DNA of 64,000 nt from a virus: the IMG/VR virus record IMGVR_UViG_3300045988_097913; one strand, written 5' to 3'. Numbering within the stretch: position 1 is the stretch's first letter; each line of letters starts with the position of its first letter. This document shows, one piece after another, positions 25,969 through 54,645 of the stretch. Position numbers and translations under genes: made by a program. The notes below the pieces were generated by a model. It saw nothing but the letters and a program-made list of their open reading frames with translations, had not been told where the DNA came from and searched no databases.

Positions 25969-28900
25969 TTATATTGTTGCTGCTTTTATGTTTTTATAAC
26001 CACCAAGTCTAGTTTGGTTATTAATTGTTCTAAGGACTTTGTTTACAATATTATCTGCCTCTTTCTTCAAGGAGTTTACAGTAGAAGCATCTGCATCACC
26101 CTGAATGTTAATCGGCATAGAGATATTGATAGAAGAGTTATCGGAGCTAGAATATGTTCTGGTGTTCACTCTTGTGGATTTAACAGCAGTATCCACAGCG
26201 CTACCGAATGGACTACCTGTAAATCTATTGCTACTAGAGGATGGTGTTGCATTGTTTGCCCATGTAGGAACAACTGCTTCACCAACTTTTAGAATAGATA
26301 CAGTTTCGTCATTACCAAGCCCCAGCATTTTATCAAGCATTGGGTTCTGCTTCTTAACGTAATCAGAACCAGAGTGGTGCTTACCAAATATTGCCTTACC
26401 AATACGATATAAGCCATACCCGGGAATCATCATCTTGGTAAAATTAAGCAGTGTACCACCTAGTTTTTGACCAAAATTCTTGTCTCTGTTTTTCCATAAT
26501 GCTATCGTATCTTTCCAATAAGTACCTACTGAGCCAATTGCGTTAGCACCGCCAATAACAACAACTCCCGCAGTACCAAGAGTACCTAGTAATCCAGCAC
26601 CGCCAGCAGCAGTAGCAGCTGCGCCGCCAGCGGCGGCTCCGGTTGCACCAGCAGTTCCTCCAATACCAAGTAAACTACCGATTCCTTTTCCAAGAGATGT
26701 AACGATACCACCTATACCGGATAAGAGTTTGCTTCCTCCTTGTATAACCATGCTTACAACTTGGCTTGCAACATTACCTAAATTAGATATAATCCCGCTA
26801 CCAATGTTCCCAAGAGAGCCAAGTGAATTTATACCATACTGAGTTAATCGCTGAATAAATCCAACGCCACTATTAAATACGGTGTTTATTCCATTTAAGA
26901 CAACAGAACTAATTCCTTTTGCTCCATTTGCAAATTTTTGGATTATGCCTCCACCAGACGATGCCATATCATTTATGACCTTACTAAAGGTTTTGCCTGT
27001 ATTTGCAAATGATTTTTCGGTTGCTTTGCCAATATCTTTTAGGCTCTTATAAGCTTTCTTAATATCCCCTGTTACATCAGAATCTATCCCAGAACCAAAT
27101 AGTTTATTGTATCCTGTGAGCAATTTTGTTACAGTATCGCTACCGGTATTAATTAGTGCTTTGCTAATTAAATTTTTAACTAGGTCACTACTAAGAATTT
27201 TAATAAATGTATTGAAACCATTTTCGATATTTCCTAGAGTAGTCTCAAATTGTTTCTGAGCATCTTGCAAAGTTTGTTTTTGCGCTTCTATAGCTTTCTT
27301 TTCTGCTTCTATTGTCTTTTCATATTCTGATTTTTCTTTATCAAGAGCATCAATTTTTATATCGTAGTCGTTATCCTTTTGCCAATCAGAAAGGTCTTTT
27401 TCTTTTTGTGCTCTTTCATCAAGAAGTTTTAAACGCTTGGCTTGTGCTTCTGCTGAGTCGTCATATTGCAGTTCCATCAATTGAGCATCAATATCCGCAA
27501 TAGATTTATTCTTTTCGGCAAGTTCATCAGCGTTATCCATCTCTTCTTTTTGAAGTTTTAGGAGTTCTTTTTGCTGGTCAATTTTGTCTTCAAAAGCATC
27601 TTTTTGGTCATCGAGTTCATCAGAAATCTTATCAAGGTTATCAATCTGAGCATCATATCTGTCAGAAATCTTACCTAACATATCAAACAGGAAATCACCT
27701 GCTTTTTCAAGCAAGTCGATTGCCGTATCAATCATATCTTCGATTTCATCTTGTAATGCTTTGATATTCTTAGAAGCGTCATCATATAGGTCTTGTTGGG
27801 CATCATCAAGTGTACCAGTAGACTTTAGTAAGGCGTTTATAACAGCTTCCACCTGTTTTTCTACTGATTCTCCGCTAATATCACCAAGGTTTAACGCTTC
27901 TGCCATAGCAGCTCTGTAATCTGCGTCATTGGTGATTTTGTCAATAAACTTCTGATAATCAGCTTTTGCTGCATTCAGTGCTTCGTCAGAACTCCAAGCG
28001 CCATAAATACCATTTTTATATTTTTCTATAACAGCCTTAGCAGAACTTAAATCTTCTTTAGCTAGATTCTTTAGAAGTTTTTGGTACGATTCTTGAATCG
28101 TACCAGCTTGTTTTTGCCATAGCGTTGTTAGCTCTTGAATTTGTTTTTCAACTGGCATATTGCTTATATCAAGATTAAACGCATCAGCTAGAACTTTTCT
28201 GGCTTTTGGGTCGTTTATAACTTCATTTAAGATTTTGTCATATCTGTCTTGGAACTCTTTGACGACAGTTGGGTCATCCCAGTTAGCATTCTCAGAATAC
28301 AGCTGTACAATACTCTTTAGGTTTTGAACTTTTTCTTTGATTGCACTTTCAAATTCTTTTGCAGCTTTATCAGCGGCAGATGTACCAGAAGAGCCAGATT
28401 TCCCGGAAGACTTGCTTTTTGGAGGTGTATAAGTTAGTCCAGCTTTTTGTAATTTGGTTAAAGCATCTAATTGCTCTTGTAAATCGTCCTTGGTCTCTTG
28501 CGCTTGCTTTCCTTGTTGCTCAAGATAATATTTTGTTTTTTGCTGTCCACGATATGTGTCCAAATCCGTCGCAGAGACCTTTTCTCCTGCGTCTATTCTT
28601 TTTTGGATAAGCTTACCAAGAGCAATCATTTCTTGCTCTATTGCTTTTATTCTTTTTTTTGTTTCATCAATCACAGACTGCGTTTGTGTTATTTGTTGTT
28701 TTTTTGTTTCAATAGCTGTATTAAAATAACCATTCGATAAATCTTGAAGAGAATCAATATTTATTCTAATATGCCCATTTTCTACAGTAAGCGCACTAAC
28801 AAGAGACGGTTCTTGCTCAATTAGTTTCTGAACTGTGGCGACACTAAGTTCGCCCTTTTCTTTCATTTCGCTATATGCCGCATTTAGAATCTCTTGTTTC

Positions 28901-30430
28901 TCTGTGACATTTGCAACGGTAGAAATATAATCCTTCATTGCCTCGTCTTGAGTAACGAGAGCATTTGTTGCCTCGGTAGTCCAGTCTGCAACCTGTTTGG
29001 AAGTTAATTCAAATATTGCTTGATTAACTTGCCCATACATTTGCTGGAACTTCGTAAGGAGTTCTTGCGTTAAATTGTCAATGTTTAAATCATTGACATC
29101 AATATTCATAGCTTGCGCCCAAGCTGCTTTTATAGAATCATCAGAATTTAGAATTTGTTGTGCAAATTTATTTGCATACGCTTCTGCCGTCTTTTGCCCG
29201 GCTTCGTCACCAGCTTGGACAGCTTCTTGTAACTTATCAGAAATACCAGAAGTGTCAATCAAATTTTTGACTTTAATTGTTTCAAAATTAGACGGGTCAA
29301 GCGCTAGGTTAACCGTGTCAAGTTGCTCTTGAAGCATCTTATACACGTCAGAACTTGTATCCCCAAGATTTTGTAAAGTTTGCATATCTTGAAGAATTGT
29401 TAATTTCTGATTTTGTAAAGCAAGTGTTTGAGCGTCCATCTGAGAATTAAGTTGTTGTAACCTAGTCGCATAATTCTCATCTGTTTTATCGAGATTTTGT
29501 TTTTCTTTGTTTAGCTGGGCAATATTCGCAAGGAGCTGATTGACGCTTGCCGATTCTGCGTCATAAAGTCTTGGTGCGATACCCACAAAAGAAGACTGAT
29601 ATTCTTCAACAGACTTATTATCGCCATATCTTGATTTAATTTCTCCCTGAGTTTTTTCTTTTGATACGGCTTTATTCGCCTCATTAACATCATTTTGCGT
29701 TTTCTGAATTTCTTTTAGGACATCAAGTTGTTCTTGAAGGTTCTCTTTTTGTTGCTCATCTGCTAATGTTAAAGTACCTTTAGAGTTGATTTCTGAGATT
29801 TGTTTGTTAATTTCAGTTATTTTATTATTTGTCTCATCAAGGTTCTGTTGGCTCTCTTGCAAGGCTTCATTTGCTTTTTTGACTTGTGCATCTGGTTGAG
29901 CATCTTTCCAAGCGTTCCATGCAACTTTCGCAACAGCTCCAATGGCGGTAATGGCTGCTACTACACCCCATATTGGTACTGCAACAGAACCTATTGTAAA
30001 TAATGTTGTATTTAGCGCCCCAATCGCACTTGTGGCAGTTATCGCAAGACTTGGAAGTTGCCCAATTAAATTGGATGTCTCCCATATATTTTTAAATATA
30101 TTGCCTGCAAAAGCTGTTGCTAAAGCAACACCGAGAGCTTTAATTAGTGGACTTAAAACTGGAATTTTATTTAGTAGAATATTTAGAATTTCTACGACTT
30201 TGGACAAACCATCGTATGCTAATGCAAGGGTTCTATCAAGGTTAGAATCCTGTGCAAATTGTTGAACACTTGCGGTTAATCTATTTTGTGCAGCTTCAAG
30301 AGATTCGTTGTAGACCGTCATCTTTTCAGCAGCAACACCGTTTGCATTTTCTGCAACACTAGTCGCTTCTAGGACACGGTTATAGTCCTCCATAGCAGCA
30401 ATAAAGACGTTGCGCTGTCTTGTGCCCGCC
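25969..30430 (-). CDS. tape measure protein, exon 4
   Basis: Frame is open upstream of the track ATG: (V)AGTRQRNVFIAAMEDYNRV continues the TMP core. Long coiled coil with a Gly/Ala-rich segment near the C-terminus. Confidence 0.8.
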
Positions 30431-30616
30431 CAATCTGTTACTTTTGTGACCTATTATTAAAATAGGCGAGAACGGTTCTCCTTAAAAGTGTCTTTACACT
30501 TGACCGCTCTTCTATAAGTTTCCTTATAGTTCAGACTATATTTTCATCCTTATACAACAAAACACATCCCAACAATAAGAGATGTGTTTGATATAAGGAG
30601 CATTCCTCCTTAGTCG

Positions 30617-31543
30617 TTACGATGCAATATTTTTAATAAGGTCTTTGTAATTATATTTGATAACTTCGTTATCTAATTCAATGTAACCTCTGTCACAATA
30701 GAAATAGATTACTTTACACCCATCGTTAAATTTAACAAGAGCAAAATCTTTTAGGCGTTCTAGTATATCATTTTCCGGTAGTTTATCCTTGTCTAGCACG
30801 AAAATGATTTGATAGAAGCCGTTGTCTCTGATAGTATCAATTCTATTTTTTTCTTTAGTATTAAATTGTTCTTGCGTCATTTTGCCAAGAACAACATCGA
30901 GATTATGTCCAGAGCCATTTATCTCAATATCTAATTTATCAGATTCAACGTAAATATCAAAAAGATATTTTCCAATCCTATGATTTATAACTCCATTATA
31001 TAAGTCTGCTAAATACTTCTGGCAGTAACTATATAATCCATTATCACCTTGCATAGACTCCATTTGTTTTTTAGCAAATTCATCTACTTTCATAGGGTTA
31101 TCCTCGCCATATCTTTCGATAAGTGTTTTGATTCTTTTGCTATTTATTTCTTTGTTCAAAATTGGATTTTCACATCCGTATCTTTGAATATTTGTTGCTC
31201 TTGCTTTATCTCTAATATCCTGTGATTGCATTGGGTTGTCTATGTTATACCGCTCCTTAAATGTATCTTTTGCTTTAAGATGACGGCAATGCACACAAGC
31301 GTCCGTTCTGGGTTTTCCTAAAGATTTATCTAACGATACGTTTCTTGTATAACAAGAATATGTAATGTTATATTCCTCTCCACAATAATCACATTTTACA
31401 GAGACTTTTACCGTACTTTTTGGTGTTAAATCCTCAACAGGGACTTGTATTTCATCAAACATTTTTACATTATATCCGAGTGATTTATAATGAGACATAG
31501 AATGGTTGTTTACTTTTACTTTAACGAATTTCGTCAAAAGCAT
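30617..31543 (-). CDS. intron-encoded homing endonuclease-like protein
   Basis: ATG 31543 follows AGGAGGTGG. Contains a 4-Cys finger (CDYC...CVHC) and three ~23-aa repeats with an RYG-x-(D/E)NP core. C-terminal DIYVE...IEINGSGHN resembles a Vsr/PD-(D/E)XK-type nuclease. Confidence 0.7.
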   Translation of the reverse strand: MLLTKFVKVKVNNHSMSHYKSLGYNVKMFDEIQVPVEDLTPKSTVKVSVKCDYCGEEYNITYSCYTRNVSLDKSLGKPRTDACVHCRHLKAKDTFKERYNIDNPMQSQDIRDKARATNIQRYGCENPILNKEINSKRIKTLIERYGEDNPMKVDEFAKKQMESMQGDNGLYSYCQKYLADLYNGVINHRIGKYLFDIYVESDKLDIEINGSGHNLDVVLGKMTQEQFNTKEKNRIDTIRDNGFYQIIFVLDKDKLPENDILERLKDFALVKFNDGCKVIYFYCDRGYIELDNEVIKYNYKDLIKNIAS

Positions 31544-31565
31544 ATAATACCACCTCCTATTACTT

Positions 31566-31593
31566 ATTATAATCAATATTTTATATTTGTCAA
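31566..31593 (-). promoter_or_regulatory. sigma-70-type promoter inside intron C
   Basis: On the minus strand: TTGACA (31593-31588), 16-nt spacer, TATAAT (31571-31566), upstream of the endonuclease RBS. Confidence 0.55.
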
Positions 31594-31717
31594 GACCTAA
31601 AACAAAAATATTGTTATCTCGGTATTCCCTTATTTATACAAACTTAGGGTTCACCGATATAGGAATGTTGTAGTGTTATAAACACCTACGAATTACTTCG
31701 TATTGTGGCTACTTAAA

Positions 31718-32181
31718 ACCACATAAGCCAACTGGTTCTGTTCAAGAGTGCTCATGTTATTCCATTTTGCACCGATTTCATCAAGAACCGTGCCAATTTC
31801 ACGCATTTTACCGTTTGTATCAACTAGGGTAATTCCATATTTGGATAGAACTTTATCTGCGTCATTGATTGTGTGGGTTATACCTTGCTCATCAACGAGG
31901 TCATCCAAATCTACTTTTGCCGTGATTTTTGATATACGCGAGATGATACTCTGCCAAGCAGACCCGATAACTTCTGGTGCTTGTCGAGTCTTTTCCTCAG
32001 AAATAGTAATTAGACCAATTAGTTTATCAAGCCCTACCCCTGCTTGTCCAGCAGAACTAGCAACTTTCTGTAATGCCGTAGAGATTTCGCCTGTGCTGGC
32101 AGCGTAGGAAAGGTCTACTTGCACAAGTTTGTCTACGATTTTGCTTGTATCATCTACAGCTACATTATAGGATTTTGTAAT
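31718..32181 (-). CDS. tape measure protein, exon 3
   Basis: ITKSYNVAVDDTSKIVDKLVQVDLSYAASTGEISTALQKVASSAG...EQNQLAYV is the TP901-type TMP core. The 5' boundary has an alternative at 32195. Confidence 0.75.
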
Positions 32182-33653
32182 CTTTGTATTGACGGCAGTT
32201 CGTTACTCTGTCGTTGTTATTTATAGAATTTTTCTCCTGTGTCAATATTTATTCCATAATAGACACAATTTGATTCTTTTAGCTTTGTAAATGCTTCATT
32301 CTTAATTTTATATAAATAATTATCATTTGGAAGTTTGTCTGTCTTTGAAATTATTTCAAATTCTTTATAACCATTATCAAGGAAGACCTTTCTTCTCAAC
32401 TCTTCGTGTTCATCAAATCCTTCTTGCGTCATTTTGTTGTATGTTACACGAATATTATGCCCAGAACCAGAATACTCGATATAAATATGTTCGTCTTCAA
32501 ACAAAATATCCGCCAAATATCCGAACATTGGAGCATTTATTTCACCGCCATATAACTTCCATAAATAAATTTGTTCAGAAGAAGTCATTGCTCCATTAAT
32601 GCCATATCTTTCATCTCTTGTTTTTAAGGCACGATTTCTAATTTCTTCATTTTGCATTGGATATTCAGTCCCATATCTTTCAAGAGTTGTTGCTTTTGCC
32701 TTTTGCATAATTTCTTCTTTCAATAACGGATTCTCAACGCCATATTTTTCTAAACAAGTATTTTTAATCTTATTCTTTATTTGTTCCGAGTGCATTGGAT
32801 GATTACAACCATATTTTTTCTGCATTGTTTCAAGCGTTTTCTTGTGTACTTCGTCTGACTGTAATCCACATACGCTTCCATATTTTTCAAGATTTGTTGC
32901 AACCACTTTTTCTCGCACAAAATCTAATTGAGAGACATATTCTTTTCCATATTTAAACATAACAGATTCTTTTCTCTTCTGATTGATACAACCTTGGTTA
33001 CTGCAACAATCTTTTGGATAATTTTTTCTGTGGGTTGCGTAAGAATAATATGCGACAGTGTAATTTGCTCCACAATAATCACATACTACATTAACGCTAC
33101 ATCTTGCCCATCTTGATACATCAGAAATATTTACTTGAATATACTCATTTATTTTAGCGTCATATCCCAATCTTTTGTATCTTTTGACATTAGAACCAGT
33201 ACATAAAATTGATACCATTTTAGAAACTAATATACAAAACACCACCTTAGATATACATAACTCTATAAATAACACTCGCACTTTTATGCGAGAATAGACT
33301 ATATCTTCATCTTCATAAAGAAGAGTTTCCCATTTCGATTTAAAGGGATTTCACCTACGCTTAACGATTTGCGCCCTACTTCTATTGCATCTTTTGAATG
33401 CCACGGAATAGTCGTTGAACCTTATCCTTAAATATTGTATCATAAATTATTTTGATAGTAAAGAGTTTTAATAAATATTTAAGAATCTTGGCTGCGGATT
33501 ATCCAATCTTTAACTATTTTACTATACTGAGGTAATTATTCTCACCGCCATCTATATTTCTATGATGGTTTAGTTGTTAAAGCTCTAAGGAGTTTCCCGT
33601 CAATTAAAGAAATAAATTATTGTATATATCACTATATACCCTGCCTAAAATCA
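32182..33653 (-). mobile_element. group I intron B (about 1472 nt) with endonuclease ORF
   Basis: Minus-strand P AATTGACGGGAAAC (33605-33592), Q AATCCGCAGCC (33500-33490), R GGTTCAACGACTA (33421-33409), S GAAGATATAGTCT (33308-33296). P1 is CUGCU/GGCAG with U.G at the splice site. Confidence 0.75.
32217..33218 (-). CDS. intron-encoded homing endonuclease-like protein (paralogue of 30617..31543)
   Basis: Same architecture as its paralogue: CDYC...Cys finger, six (K/R)YG-x-x-(N/H/Y)P repeats, and C-terminal LFEDEHIYIEYSGSGHN. The start is uncertain (ATG 33218 chosen). Confidence 0.65.
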   Translation of the reverse strand: MVSILCTGSNVKRYKRLGYDAKINEYIQVNISDVSRWARCSVNVVCDYCGANYTVAYYSYATHRKNYPKDCCSNQGCINQKRKESVMFKYGKEYVSQLDFVREKVVATNLEKYGSVCGLQSDEVHKKTLETMQKKYGCNHPMHSEQIKNKIKNTCLEKYGVENPLLKEEIMQKAKATTLERYGTEYPMQNEEIRNRALKTRDERYGINGAMTSSEQIYLWKLYGGEINAPMFGYLADILFEDEHIYIEYSGSGHNIRVTYNKMTQEGFDEHEELRRKVFLDNGYKEFEIISKTDKLPNDNYLYKIKNEAFTKLKESNCVYYGINIDTGEKFYK

Positions 33654-33762
33654 AGCAGTGAGTTGGTCAGTCGCCTCGCTTGCGTCTAATTGACCAACAA
33701 CAGCCAACGTAGTTGACTGCTTTAGCATCTCCATTGCTTCTTGAGCATTATAACCCTGTCTT
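33654..33762 (-). CDS. tape measure protein, exon 2 (109-nt micro-exon, not in ORF track)
   Basis: Encodes (L)RQGYNAQEAMEMLKQSTTLAVVGQLDASEATDQLTA, the missing TMP core segment. It is flanked by stop codons in its frame. Confidence 0.8.
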
Positions 33763-34120
33763 CAATTTGTTACTCTTAATAATCGCCACTTATCAAAAGA
33801 TTCCATATAGGATTTTCTATGTATTTCTACATAAGTTCTGACTATATCTTTACCATAAAGGTATCTCCCGTTTCAGAGCACTCGCCCTTACAATTAGTCG
33901 ATGAACCTTACTCTTAAATATTATATCATATCTATTAAAATATTTCAATAGCTTTATTATAAATATTTAAGAATCTTGGCTGCTGATTATCCAATCTTCG
34001 ATTATTTTACCATGCCTGAATGATTAGTTCAGCCATTATTATATCACTATAATAACTTGGTTATCAAAGCTCTAAGGACTTTCCAGCAATTAGAGAGATT
34101 TTACTTGACCTAGACATTTA
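33763..34120 (-). mobile_element. group I intron A (358 nt, ORF-less)
   Basis: Minus-strand P AATTGCTGGAAAGT (34091-34078), Q AATCAGCAGCC (33988-33978), R GGTTCATCGACTA (33907-33895), S AAAGATATAGTCAG (33851-33838). P1 is CUUGGCU/GGUCAAG with a terminal U.G. The intron ends ...AGTAACAAATTG. Confidence 0.8.
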
Positions 34121-35688
34121 AGCCAAGCATCTGCACCCTCTGCAACTGTGGTCGTAGTAGTGCCAAGTTGCTTTGCCAATTTAGTATAACTATCAGCCAA
34201 CGCCACAGTATCTTCATAGCTACCCATTGTAACCATACGAACCTGTGTCATGGCTTCGTTCATATCATAAATTGCAGATGTAAATTCGCTAGTGATTTTG
34301 TTGATGGCTTCCATAGCCACCCGATACTTAATAAAATTTTCTACACTAGATTGAACGGAGTCAGAAAGAGACTTTTGCCCTTCTTTATGTGTTTCTAAGG
34401 TTACATTTGCTTGTCTGAGCGCATCTGTAACTTGTTCCGTCTGGTTTTCTTGATTTTTTTGAACGACAACAAACTGAGCCGTTCCGCTTGTGCTAGCTTG
34501 TACCTCAACTCCGTATTGTTTTAGTGTAGAGACAAGACCGCTCATTGCAGTTTGAGTATCTTTGTATGCTTGAGTATCTTGTTTTCCTTGTGATTCAAGA
34601 GTTTGCAAAGTCTGATATTGCTTTACATACTCCTTAATGGTACTCAGAAGTTTCTGGTCTTTGGCTTTTGCATTTGTAGCATCAAGAGATGTGCCAACAT
34701 TTTTTACAGCCTTTTCAACCTTATCAATATTTTCTTTTGCCTGAACGGCGCTTGTTGCTGTTTTGTCAAAAGTTAATTTACCAGTTGTTTGGTCAATAAC
34801 AAGACCATATTGTTTCATTTCAAAAACAATATTTTGAAGCTGTTTTTCTAGCTCTTGATAATACGCAGAACCTTTTTGACCGCTTGTTTCTGCCTGAGTT
34901 ATTTTAGCCTGAACAGACTGATATTGATTCAACAAACTAATACTATTTGTTAGATTAGTATTATCCTTTTCCGCAACGGCTTGATTTTGTAGATTTTGTT
35001 TATAGACATTTCTTTTGGCAATAAGCTCTTGTTCTGCATTGGCAATATTTTGTTTAGCTACCGTGTTTTGTGTGCTTAACTGTTTCTCTAATTCTTGCCG
35101 CTCTGTGGCGAGTTGTGTCTTCAACGAGGTGTAATATTGGACATTAACAGAATTACCTTGCTGTTTAGCATCCATTATCTTCGTCTCATACTGGTATCTC
35201 TTCTCAAGATTTTGTATAATTTCTTTTTCAATTTGACTTTGTTCTTTTGTTTGTTCTGCACCAGAATAAGTGGACGAAGATGTTCTTAGTTGCTCATATT
35301 GCTTTCTTATATTTATTACTTCTTGAAGACTGCCAGCGGCCTTTATACTTTCTGCTTCTGCAACGTCTATCGCATCTTTTATGCTTTGTTTTAATGTTAT
35401 TACTGTTCCATTTGCATCTTTGAAAGACGAAGTAATATTAGACCCAGCCCGTTTGACACTTCCTCCGAGGCTTTCAACTAATTTTGCTACTTCATTTATA
35501 TCGTCTTTTTTGAAGTTCTTCGGGAAAGAAAAGCCTTTACCCATTGCTTCGCTTACTTGCGACGATATTTTTTCTGCAACCTCTTTTAGCTCTTCTTCTA
35601 AATATTTTGCACTGTCTGTTACATTTTTAGTATCAAACTCAGGCGTAATTAGAAAGCTAAAAATATCGCTTTGAGATTTATTTGCCAT
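34121..35688 (-). CDS. tape measure protein, exon 1
   Basis: Coiled-coil N-terminal region ending ...LAKQLGTTTTTVAEGADAW(L). The track ORF reads through into the intron (KCLGQVKSL-stop). Confidence 0.8.
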
Positions 35689-52608: not shown

Positions 52609-53140
52609 TTAACCAAAGAACGTCCAATCTAATAGACTGTTAGTTTCTTGTTTGTTAATATACTGGTCTTCTAGTAACTTGGCGTACCAAAGACCATAAG
52701 CCAAAGACATAACACGGTCTTTACGATTCCCAGCTTTTTCCTTTAGGTTAATATAGCCCTGAGTAACCACCTGTTCCAAACTAATTGCCTCATCAACAAG
52801 CCGATTAGTTTGTACATAAGGATTCATAAGACGTTTCTTTAAATCCTCGTCTTCAATCTTATAATACTGATAGTTCTTCATCATATAATCAAGACCCTCT
52901 TGACTATCAACAAGTAGATTAACTCGCCCATCAGTAATCAAATCACGCATATTACTGAACATAGCAGACTTCAACTGGATTGGAGTTTTAACAGAATAAA
53001 TTACAGGAACCGCATTTCTATCAATAGTGCGATTAACCATTTTAATATCTTCTGGGTTAACCACTGTCCACGCTGGGTAAGTAACGCCACGATTTTCATC
53101 ATAGGTTTCTGTAGTGGCATAGTCAAAAATAGAAATACCT
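52609..53140 (-). CDS. terL: terminase large subunit, exon 2 (nuclease domain)
   Basis: Frame is open upstream of the track start: (V)GISIFDYATTETYDENRGVTYPAWTVVNPED... continues ...ILDTQG from exon 1. Confidence 0.75.
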
Positions 53141-53401
53141 CATTTATTATCTTTAGAGCTTTTTATCTCTAAATTCTAATACTTATTATTCGCATTAGTT
53201 TAGCATATCTTTTCATCCTAAATTTAAATAGGAGTTGCGGACTCTTGGAGATGTTATATTCTATAAATAGTTTCAATCTCTATGCGTTGTGTGTGTTATA
53301 TATATTATTATATAACTTCCACTCTGATTGGCATTCCAGCCTTCCAGTTTTCTTCCGCAATACTTAATTATATATTACTATATAATTGGCGCAAGCATTT
53401 C
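53141..53401 (-). mobile_element. group I-like intron in terL (261 nt, ORF-less)
   Basis: P1 is GGCGU/GCGCC with U.G at the splice site, and the terminal G is at 53141. Internal 7-bp pairing TTGCGGA/TCCGCAA (P4-like) and an S-like AAGATATGCTA are present. I could not complete the full fold by eye. Confidence 0.65.
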
Positions 53402-54645
53402 ACGCCTTGTGTATCAAGTATCATGTAATCGCATTCAAACTCATAAAATAATTGTTTCATTCTCTTAGTTTGAGCGATTGAGTTTAGACCGTGCATACTA
53501 TCTGCGTATGGCACAATAATTGTATATCTTCCACTATCAGGAATTAACCTAATAATAAAAAATGCAGTATTGTCGTTCTTGCTAGATTCAATAACAGCAA
53601 CGTCCATACATAGTAACCTAATTTCATTAGGTAGTTTTTCTTGATAGTAAGGATATTTTTCTCTACAATCTTTATACTGAATATACTCTTCATCAGACAT
53701 ACAGCAGAATGCCTTAGAGTTAGTTCTAACTCTATCCATCATTTTATATGTGAAATAAGAATTACCAGTGCCACGTTCAGGTATACAGTTATATTCTGCT
53801 TGCAAAATATTTATATTTTCGAGGTTGGACTTGAAAGTGTCTTCAACCTTCTTTTTACTTATAAACCCATTTTTAACACCAAGAACATAACTAACAACTG
53901 TTGCACAATAATCTCTATTACCGTCCGTCATCCAGTCTATATAATCCTCAAATGTTTTATAAGACCATTCATCAGCTCGTCTGATAGAAGATAGATAAAC
54001 TTTCCTTAATTCTTCTTTTTTATATTCTTCTGCTCGTTCTTCTCTTGTTAAATCAAGATACCTTGGTTTTCTTGGGTCGGAAAGCATTGGGTCAAAAACA
54101 CGAGTAATTACTTCTTTTTCTGTACGAACAAATTCATCAACAATAAGTATGTTTGCGCGTAACCCCAATGCATTTTCACTGTACGTCGCAGTAAAAATTG
54201 TAGAACCATTTTTGAACGGAACTTGACATTCATTAACGCCAATCTTAATCTCATCAACTTTGATTTCCTGTTCTAGGTTCTTACTCATTCGCATATACTC
54301 GTAAATCTTCTTAACGAATTGTTTACTCTGTGATTTAACAGGACAAACAACAAGAATTTTGAGACCGGGATAAAGAATCGCCATTTGGCAACAGAAATCT
54401 AACGTCAGAGAAGATTTCGCTATGCCTCTGCTTCCTATAAATATATAGTTTGCTGTATTATTCATTTCCCAAATTAAAACTTTTTGAAAATCATACAATG
54501 GCAAACCTAGATATTCAGTAATAAATCTTTGAGGATTTGCTCTCCAATATCCAACCCATGCTTCAAAATTTTCATTGTATTGCTCTTGAAGTGTAGCACG
54601 TTTTTTCTTTAGTCTTCGGATTGTGATTTTGTCTGACTCTGACAT
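53402..54645 (-). CDS. terL: terminase large subunit, exon 1 (ATPase domain)
   Basis: Walker A is IGSRGIAKSS and Walker B is ILIVDEF. The exon ends ...CDYMILDTQGV, and the track ORF reads through into the intron (KCLRQLYSNI-stop). Confidence 0.8.

Follow-up and report, generated by a model that had tools for sequence, protein, structure and literature searches.

The large terminase gene (terL) of the virus recorded as IMGVR_UViG_3300045988_097913 in IMG/VR is interrupted on the minus strand by a 261-nt element, located at 53141–53401 of the stretch analysed here (64,000 nucleotides, hereafter the window). Our analysis indicates that this element is, very probably, an IA1-like group I intron without an open reading frame (ORF), which would self-splice by the two-step, guanosine-initiated pathway and restore a 591-aa large terminase protein (TerL). 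The assignment is based on its exact insertion relative to intron-less alleles, a score of 235.7 bits with a covariance model of its family (R1), covariation of its helices among relatives, and a minimum free energy (MFE) fold with z = −3.7. Catalysis, the identity of the guanosine-binding pair and the tertiary contacts are features that we infer. A preliminary description, made from the sequence alone, had interpreted the interruption of terL as a group I-like intron lacking an ORF, and the U·G pair in P1, the P10 pairing, the terminal G, the P3/P7 pseudoknot and the covarying helices described below uphold that interpretation.

The intron divides terL into two called ORFs. According to the ORF list, the upstream ORF (53368–54645, minus strand, as are all terL and intron features of the window below) encodes 425 aa and ends with CDYMILDTQGV, followed by KCLRQLYSNI and a stop. 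The downstream frame is open from 53139 to 52609 and begins with GISIFDYATTETYDENRGVTYPAWTVVNPED; its first start codon is the GTG at 53064, which gives a called ORF of 151 aa, and the frame is open for 75 nt 5' of that codon (76 nt according to the preliminary description). When 53402 is joined to 53140, a 1776-nt ORF of 591 codons results, in which ILDTQGV continues into GISIFD without interruption, and the uninterrupted protein with the motif ILDTQGVGI that had been expected is obtained. The ligated junction is predicted to read CAAGGCGU followed by AGGUAUUUC, or in longer form TGATACACAAGGCGT followed by AGGTATTTCTATTTT. Exon 1 (53402–54645) comprises codons 1–414 and two nucleotides of Val415, and carries Walker A (SRGIAKS) and Walker B (ILIVDE) as well as the first part of the nuclease domain; exon 2 (52609–53140) runs from the last nucleotide of codon 415 to the stop and includes 25 conserved residues (GISIFDY..YPAWT) before the GTG. 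Codon 415 is thus split by the intron between the invariant Gly414 and Gly416. The intron has a GC content of 29%, compared with 34% in the exons, and since its largest internal ORF is only 35 aa, it is considered ORF-less.

The spliced product was searched against ~5.8 billion proteins. Four uninterrupted 591-aa proteins (P0001–P0004) share 98–99% identity with it, and the same search returned many full-length relatives down to 42% identity as well as many truncated gene calls of 425 aa. In the DNA encoding P0001 (loci L053–L055; 99% identical protein), GATACGCAAGGAGT is directly followed by AGGTATTTC (extended form, GATACGCAAGGAGT followed by AGGTATTTCTATT), and the intron-less allele around the insertion site reads CAAGGAGTAGGTATT. 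These loci correspond to exon 1 of the window directly joined to exon 2, and no alternative 261-nt deletion gives the same result. Because the intron-less alleles are exactly exon 1 plus exon 2, the boundaries of the 261-nt intron are unambiguous, and the splice from 53402 to 53140 that had been proposed matches them exactly. The spliced TerL aligns end to end with 23 uninterrupted homologues, and in an alignment of 24 uninterrupted sequences no variation was seen at D406, D411, G414 and G416, which flank the junction; the preliminary description had recommended this alignment as a check, and both the invariant residues and the uninterrupted 99%-identical alleles came out in its favor.

The RNA follows the canonical group I order, P3, P4–P6, P7, P3', P8 and P7', with a P3/P7 pseudoknot. 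With intron nt 1 placed at 53401, P1 (53388–53406) is formed by exon GGCGU (53406–53402) and guide GCGCC (53392–53388, intron nt 10–14), including the U53402·G53392 pair. In P10, the exon-2 bases AGGUAUUUC (53132–53140) pair with intron nt 1–9, GAAAUGCUU (53401–53393), over 9 bp. The P2 hairpin (53366–53387) consists of AAUUAUAUA/UAUAUAAUU (nt 15–23/28–36) with a GUAA loop of the GNRA type, and the in-frame UAA that ends the exon-1 frame (53370–53368) lies in its 3' strand. A stop codon in P1 or P2 is commonly seen in introns of Bacillus prophages (PMC2504315). The 5' strand of P3 (UUGCGGA, 53354–53360, nt 42–48) pairs with its 3' strand (UCCGCAA, 53235–53241, nt 161–167), which closes the P3/P7 pseudoknot; all seven pairs are doubly changed in relatives. 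P4–P5 (53324–53347) is composed of P4 CUGG/UCAG (nt 55–58/75–78), J4/5 AA, P5 GGC/GCC (nt 61–63/70–72) with the loop UGGAAU, and J5/4 AA, and is present in the MFE fold. It is followed by P6 GUG/CAC (nt 80–82/109–111) with the AU-rich hairpin P6a (nt 86–93/100–107), which together occupy 53291–53322. The 5' strand of P7 (GCAUA, 53281–53285, nt 117–121) is preceded by J6/7 (A/G)CAAC, ACAAC in the window.

Between P7 and P3' lies an additional arm, P7.1/P7.1a (53248–53280), with helices GAGAU/AUCUC (nt 122–126/150–154) and CUA/UAG (nt 132–134/139–141, with UUUA between), which are 99.7% and 96.8% paired, respectively. Its internal loops, UGAAA and AAUAUAAC, are conserved, as is the joiner CCAAGAG that follows. 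P8 (53214–53234) is a hairpin of CUCCUA/UAGGAUG (nt 168–173/182–188) with one bulged U, and in relatives it is the insertion point of an ORF of the HNH type. J8/7 AAAAGA and the 3' strand of P7, UAUGC (nt 195–199), occupy 53203–53213 and form the S-like element AAGAUAUGCUA. P9 (CUAAUGC/GUAUUAG, nt 204–210/220–226) and P9.1 (UUUAGAG/CUCUAAA, nt 229–235/244–250), located at 53152–53198, are 98–99% paired; the P9.1 loop AUAAAAAG is conserved, and L9, which has 9 nt in the window copy, is GAAA in many relatives. The terminal omega-G at 53141 (G261) is the last nucleotide of the conserved tail GAUAA(C/U)AAAUG, and all 13 relatives with hand-assigned boundaries end in UG at the 3' splice site. The MFE fold of the 261 nt (−52.2 kcal/mol) recovered every nested helix. 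Conserved J8/7 AAAAGA and J6/7 CAAC resemble the canonical S and R elements, and the first P7 pair, G–C, is the putative guanosine-binding pair.

The P1 pairing with its U·G, the terminal G, the AU hairpin, UUGCGGA/UCCGCAA, GCAUA/UAUGC and AAGAUAUGCUA listed in the preliminary description are all present, and these helices exceed chance by the z-score of the MFE fold and by covariation in relatives. In that description the elements could not, on the other hand, be fitted by eye to the canonical order. The difficulty arose from the 33-nt P7.1/P7.1a arm, which places the R-like element a long way 5' of P3'; the canonical order fits once the arm is recognized, and relatives detected by the Rfam group I model RF00028 have the same insertion at the same position. 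UUGCGGA/UCCGCAA was at first read as P4 because of its likeness to canonical UUGCGGG; that reading was discarded, as both the P7 5' strand and the P7.1 arm lie within this helix, and it covaries as P3. GCAUA/UAUGC is P7. In the scheme of Michel and Westhof, subgroup IA1 is reportedly distinguished by an extra P7.1/P7.1a arm between P7 and P3'. Based on this arm, and on homology to an intron that its authors class as IA1 (see below), the intron may be placed as IA1-like.

The fold was tested by comparison across relatives. From nine ORF-less members we built the covariance model R1, which has 226 positions and 52 pairs and omits P7; it returned 136 matches in 100 loci, and within the window the intron is its sole full copy, with the highest score seen. 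Among the 136 relatives, 94.2% of 6465 cells hold standard pairs, compared with 61% in shuffles and 33–43% with slid partners. Double-sided changes occur in 55 of the 57 pairs, distributed over 11 helices, and the covariation score is 0.627 versus 0.05–0.09 in controls. P7, which R1 does not model, is 96% paired with three covarying pairs; its variants are GCAUA/UAUGC (65 sequences), GCGUA/UACGC (18), GACUA/UAGUC (13), GAGUA/UACUC (5), GCGCA/UGCGC (1) and GCUUA/UAAGC (1), and the first pair is G–C in 104 of 114 sequences. GNRA-type L2 loops (GUGA, GAAA, GCAA) were present in seven of the eight members shown from outside the window's position in terL, which is referred to as site 2; site 1 is a second position in the terL gene of the human-gut phage MT835481 (L001), described below.

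The guide sequence changes to match each different insertion site. In L043 and at site 2 of L001, P1 is GGGGU/GCCCC in place of the GGCGU/GCGCC of the window, a synonymous Gly change in the exon that is compensated in the guide, while P10 in L043 is that of the window (AGGUAUUUC/GAAAUGCUU). At site 1 of L001 the pairings, read by hand from the sequence, are GGUAU/AUGCC for P1 and AUUCGU/AUGAAU for P10; in L006 they are GCCU/GGGC and AAAACC/GGUUUU, in L037 GGU/GCC and AAAGA/UCUUU, and in L013 UGGU/GCCG and AUUUCU/AGAAAU. Between L016 and L013, exon and guide have both changed at the corresponding P10 position. Twelve of 13 relatives, with at least seven distinct exon contexts, have U·G at the splice site, and a P10 of at least 4 bp, re-matched to each exon, is found in seven of the 13 (L001 site 1 and L033 read by hand). 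The script that selects the longest helix as P1 took the P2 region in L001 site 1, L033 and L028, and these were re-read by position homology.

Two variants of the splice site were noted. In L045 (9356–9674, minus strand) the last exon base is C, opposite a guide A (UGGGC/ACCCA), and P8 is extended; this suggests that a C·A pair replaces the U·G wobble. In four loci with a divergent TerL (L013, L016, L038 and L039) an intron of the same lineage follows the Gly416 codon, 4 nt further downstream than in the window, the GAAAU guide is reused against the same AUUUC exon bases, and P8 contains an insert of ~0.9 kb, presumably an ORF.

Several observations weigh against a group I intron in terL. The alignment behind the pair counts was fitted to R1 itself, with the exception of P7. 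In the window copy P4 has 4 bp and P5 only 3 bp, P8 requires a bulged U, and several helices are almost purely A–U, which makes them weak evidence within a single sequence; their support comes from the relatives. A cmscan of the 801-nt locus region detected no Rfam family, RF00028 included, at E ≤ 10, and RF00028 had no match at E ≤ 1 in 12 loci of the family. Finally, no reverse transcription PCR or in vivo splicing test was found in the paper on the closest published relative (PMC2504315).

The preliminary description had named a search with the Rfam group I model as a check, and this search gave no match. In the whole window, cmscan at the gathering threshold reported only two other introns, both in the tape-measure gene; the terL intron does not reach the RF00028 gathering threshold. 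The same P7.1 arm is nevertheless found in two RF00028-positive introns, L144 (99.5 bits) and L131 (87.7 bits), where the Rfam alignment shows it as an insertion between P7 and P3', and R1 scores these introns at 87 and 119 bits. When the Bacillus plasmid pBWB404 was fetched by accession and scanned with R1, a match of 150.9 bits (E = 1e-40) was found at 28586–28791, directly upstream of the coding sequence from 28795 (the downstream piece of a tape-measure gene). Tourasse and Kolsto (2008; PMC2504315) reported one group I intron on this plasmid, TMP-IVS3b of class IA1, which is homologous to term-IVS1 of a prophage terminase gene and has a different P1. Since it is the only group I intron reported on pBWB404, the match is probably TMP-IVS3b. 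RF00028 gave no match at E ≤ 10 on this region either, so the model misses an IA1 intron of the same R1 family; blastn against plasmids made no link from the intron to the Bacillus introns (identity too low). R1 thus finds both RF00028-positive introns and the pBWB404 intron that RF00028 misses, and the silence of Rfam reflects a gap in the model. Phage introns are under-represented by the Rfam and GISSD models according to Bastillevirinae intron authors (PMC11878797), and given this report and the failure on pBWB404, we treat the RF00028 miss as a limit of the model and not as the failure of a defining feature. This gap seems to stem mainly from the altered middle pairs of P7 and from the very small P4–P6.

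Applying standard group I chemistry to the intron, the following pathway is proposed. terL would be transcribed with the intron included, and translation from exon 1 would end at the UAA ten codons into the intron, inside P2. The RNA would fold into the P3–P8 core with its P3/P7 pseudoknot, and the guide GCGCC would pair with exon GGCGU, placing the splice-site U in the U·G wobble of P1. A free guanosine, held at the conserved first G–C pair of P7, would attack after U53402. The adjacent guide bases GAAAUGCUU would then hold exon 2 (AGGUAUUUC) in P10, the terminal G53141 would enter the G site, and the 3'-OH of exon 1 would attack after G53141, yielding a ligated mRNA that encodes the 591-aa TerL. 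The ORF-less copy would persist by vertical descent and recombination.

The alternative that survives best, although we consider it very improbable, is a decayed and catalytically dead intron whose fold is kept by descent only, with terL being a pseudogene or dependent on a helper. The window copy lacks an endonuclease ORF, has the bulge in P8, and carries a U in the 3' tail where the family usually has C (GAUAAUAAAUG versus GAUAACAAAUG), all of which could be taken as signs of decay. Against this, the copy has the top model score with every helix intact, both exon frames are intact and 98–99% identical to intron-less alleles, and ~17 viral contigs carry a near-identical intron. The 425-aa truncated gene call is also common, one cluster having 280 members, which is not to be expected if the interruption were a lethal defect in a gene essential for packaging.

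It is even less probable that TerL is naturally split and that two polypeptides assemble into an active terminase, even though gene callers produce ORFs of 425 and 151 aa and public databases contain many 425-aa "large terminase" entries (one nr entry bears this name). The break would fall inside the nuclease fold, in a codon flanked by invariant glycines, and the downstream frame lacks a start codon for its first 25 residues. This stretch includes positions invariant in the uninterrupted homologues (G416, D429, R432, Y436, P437 and W439). When the sequence was read by eye, no GGAGG-like ribosome-binding site was seen before the GTG at 53064. The two ORFs are separated by a structured, conserved RNA and not by a spacer, and alleles with 99% identity are uninterrupted. 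Ribosomal bypassing or another class of element (group II intron, small ribozyme, miniature inverted-repeat transposable element) is the least likely explanation of all, for although no Rfam family was found on the 801-nt region, 261 nt is too short for a group II intron, the P1 and P10 guide pairings, terminal G and pseudoknot topology are those of group I, the matches of R1 include introns positive with RF00028 and one published as IA1, and the exact junction leaves no duplicated bases, as judged without a dedicated search for terminal inverted repeats or target-site duplications.

The interrupted gene itself is identified as a large terminase by its predicted ATPase and RNase H-like nuclease and by its portal neighbor. 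A search of Pfam with the spliced TerL gave sub-threshold matches only; one of these, to Terminase_6C, an RNase H-like nuclease (aa 354–492, below threshold), includes the insertion. The preliminary description had placed the break at the boundary between ATPase and nuclease, which has to be revised, as codon 415 lies inside this weakly matching region. With the single TerL sequence, phmmer found no match in PDB and a profile was required; a profile of the 24 homologues aligns with the ATPase of T4/RB49 gp17 (E = 8e-4), both Walker motifs being part of the alignment. Matches to PHROG TerL families were obtained at 1.7e-7 and 1.1e-6, and the next gene downstream matches portal (3.7e-43). Three PHROGs of "unknown function", 15503, 26582 and 24618, match TerL aa 10–220, 251–575 and 365–581, far better than the annotated terminase PHROGs, and seem to have been assembled from pieces of terL genes split by introns. 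The genes next to terL in L053–L055 carry the Pfam domains YonJ_N, YonG_N and YonD_N, which points to an SPbeta-like phage.

When terL was searched against GenBank phages with megablast, the only record returned was the unannotated MT835481, whose terL is the same gene with two copies of the intron element. In the copy at site 2 the P8 hairpin is replaced by a 289-aa ORF (L001 4221–5090) with matches to Pfam HNH, HNH_2 and DUF7487. The site-1 copy (L001 2988–3251) is 80% identical, ORF-less, and located four codons before Walker B ILIVDE, with a guide fully re-matched to its site. In L024 and L030, site 1 is occupied by a copy whose 5' part has an insert of ~1 kb, and site 2 by an ORF-less copy; L046 and L027 have the site-2 copy alone, with the endonuclease gene, a 289-aa HNH ORF in P8 as in L001. 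The window's allele type is represented by the ~17 near-identical loci with an ORF-less intron in viral collections, one of which (L022; IMGVR_UViG_3300045988_065120, 73 kb) is identical over the intron and 30 nt on each side. At an identical site there are therefore empty alleles (L053–L055), ORF-less alleles (window and ~17 loci) and endonuclease-bearing alleles (L001, L046, L027), with an extra copy at the second terL site in L001, L024 and L030. This series fits the usual cycle of gain and loss of intron and endonuclease. As no homing endonuclease is encoded in the window's intron, it is not autonomously mobile, and it may be mobilized in trans by sister copies with an HNH ORF in P8 at the same site.

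A total of 51 viral contigs and 14 genome contigs (from metagenome-assembled genomes of Bacilli, and from Gemmiger, Lachnospiraceae, Ruminococcaceae and others) contain the core motif AATCAGAGTGGAAG..CAACGCATAG, and a motif taken from the P7.1 arm alone was found in at least 120 viral contigs, which include introns with the canonical cores CAGCAGCCAAG..GGUUCAACGACUAG and GAAGAUAUAGUC as well as intermediates. L057 (3033–7756; IMGVR_UViG_3300025087_000044) has at least nine R1 matches within ~5 kb, making this stretch unusually intron-dense. In blastn searches the intron touches mostly unannotated DNA (H3–H19), including Yersinia jumbo phage phiR1-37, crAss-like cr128_1 and cr111_1, Staphylococcus phage vB-SscS-F1, Clostridium phages CS266P1-4 and Clostridioides difficile plasmids of ~130 kb; this suggests unannotated introns of the lineage well outside the phages of gut Bacillota. 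Two further RNAs were noted in relatives, namely 13 RF00005 (tRNA) matches in L036 (3115–4647), 12 of them above the gathering score, and an abiF RNA match of 48 bits in L016.

A broader proposal, which we regard as speculative and on balance unlikely, is that these introns form a very large, largely unannotated IA1-like clade in phages of gut Bacillota, crAss-like and other phages, unseen by Rfam-based annotation, that retargets by changing its guide (for example by reverse splicing), not only by endonuclease homing, even within one gene. P7 GCAUA/UAUGC, a miniature P4–P6, the P7.1/P7.1a arm and the AUAAAAAG loop in P9.1 may be the marks of such a clade. The idea of retargeting is based on the 80%-identical paralogues at two terL sites in one phage and on the 4-nt shift with the same GAAAU guide.

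The tape-measure gene of the window (25969–35688, minus strand) is likewise interrupted, being present in at least three ORF pieces (34090–35688, 31693–32124 and 25969–30393). The RF00028-positive introns lie between the pieces, at 33817–34175 (75 bits) and 33275–33662 (66 bits), and the region contains two endonuclease-like ORFs, 32217–33281 (354 aa) and 30617–31576 (319 aa), which in their N-termini and repeats are similar to the DUF7487 portion of the HNH protein of the terL intron. At 30486–30592 (minus strand), an S-like GAAAAUAUAGUC precedes a hairpin capped by GAAA; R1 has a weak match there (16.7 bits, E = 0.005), and RF00028 none at E ≤ 1. A third tape-measure intron, with the 319-aa ORF in its body, probably has its 3' end here.

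The practical value of these findings is in annotation and in exposing a detection gap. At present terL is recorded as a truncated 425-aa "large terminase" and an orphan ORF, and knowledge of the intron restores the 591-aa packaging enzyme. RF00028 misses this IA1-like phage lineage, while two simple motif scans found the lineage or close relatives, and surveys that rely on Rfam consequently undercount phage introns. The alleles, moreover, constitute a complete series for the gain, loss and retargeting of intron and endonuclease, with empty, ORF-less and HNH-bearing forms and a second copy in terL.

Among known systems, the intron is most similar to TMP-IVS3a/b and term-IVS1 of prophages of the B. 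cereus group. With the pBWB404 copy it shares P7 GCAUA/UAUGC, the P7.1 loops, the joiner (CCACGAG there), the P9.1 loop (GAUAAAAAGC) and the tail GAUAACA. Both groups occupy large terminase and tape-measure genes, retarget through P1 and the guide, and exist in ORF-less and endonuclease-bearing versions (PMC2504315), and RF00028 misses the window and pBWB404 copies alike. They differ in host, which is a human-gut SPbeta-like phage here and a lambda01-like Bacillus prophage there, and in insertion, which here is codon 415 of another TerL family; in addition, the P2 hairpin of the window copy, capped by a GNRA loop, is absent from the pBWB404 copy.

RF00028-type phage introns, such as the two in the window's tape-measure gene and those of L144 and L131, share the helix order and pseudoknot, and L144 and L131 also have the same P7.1 element and P9/P9.1 domain. 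The J6/7–P7 and J8/7–P7' segments are similar (CAACGACUAG and GAAGAUAUAGUC versus CAACGCAUAG and AAAAGAUAUGCU). However, the two middle pairs of P7 differ, with GCAUA/UAUGC here and GACUA/UAGUC there, and P4–P6 is much smaller here, without the AAUUGCGGGAAA..UCCGCAGCCAAG consensus. In Bastillevirinae, terL and DNA polymerase genes also carry group I introns, likened here by their description. Those that interrupt terL are of the IA type, with two or three in some genes and often an HNH ORF in a loop, and splicing of some has been confirmed experimentally (PMC11878797); the phage subfamily and the intron clades are different. Taken together, the terL intron of the window is a new copy in the phage intron family described in 2008, and nothing about it is biologically unexpected.

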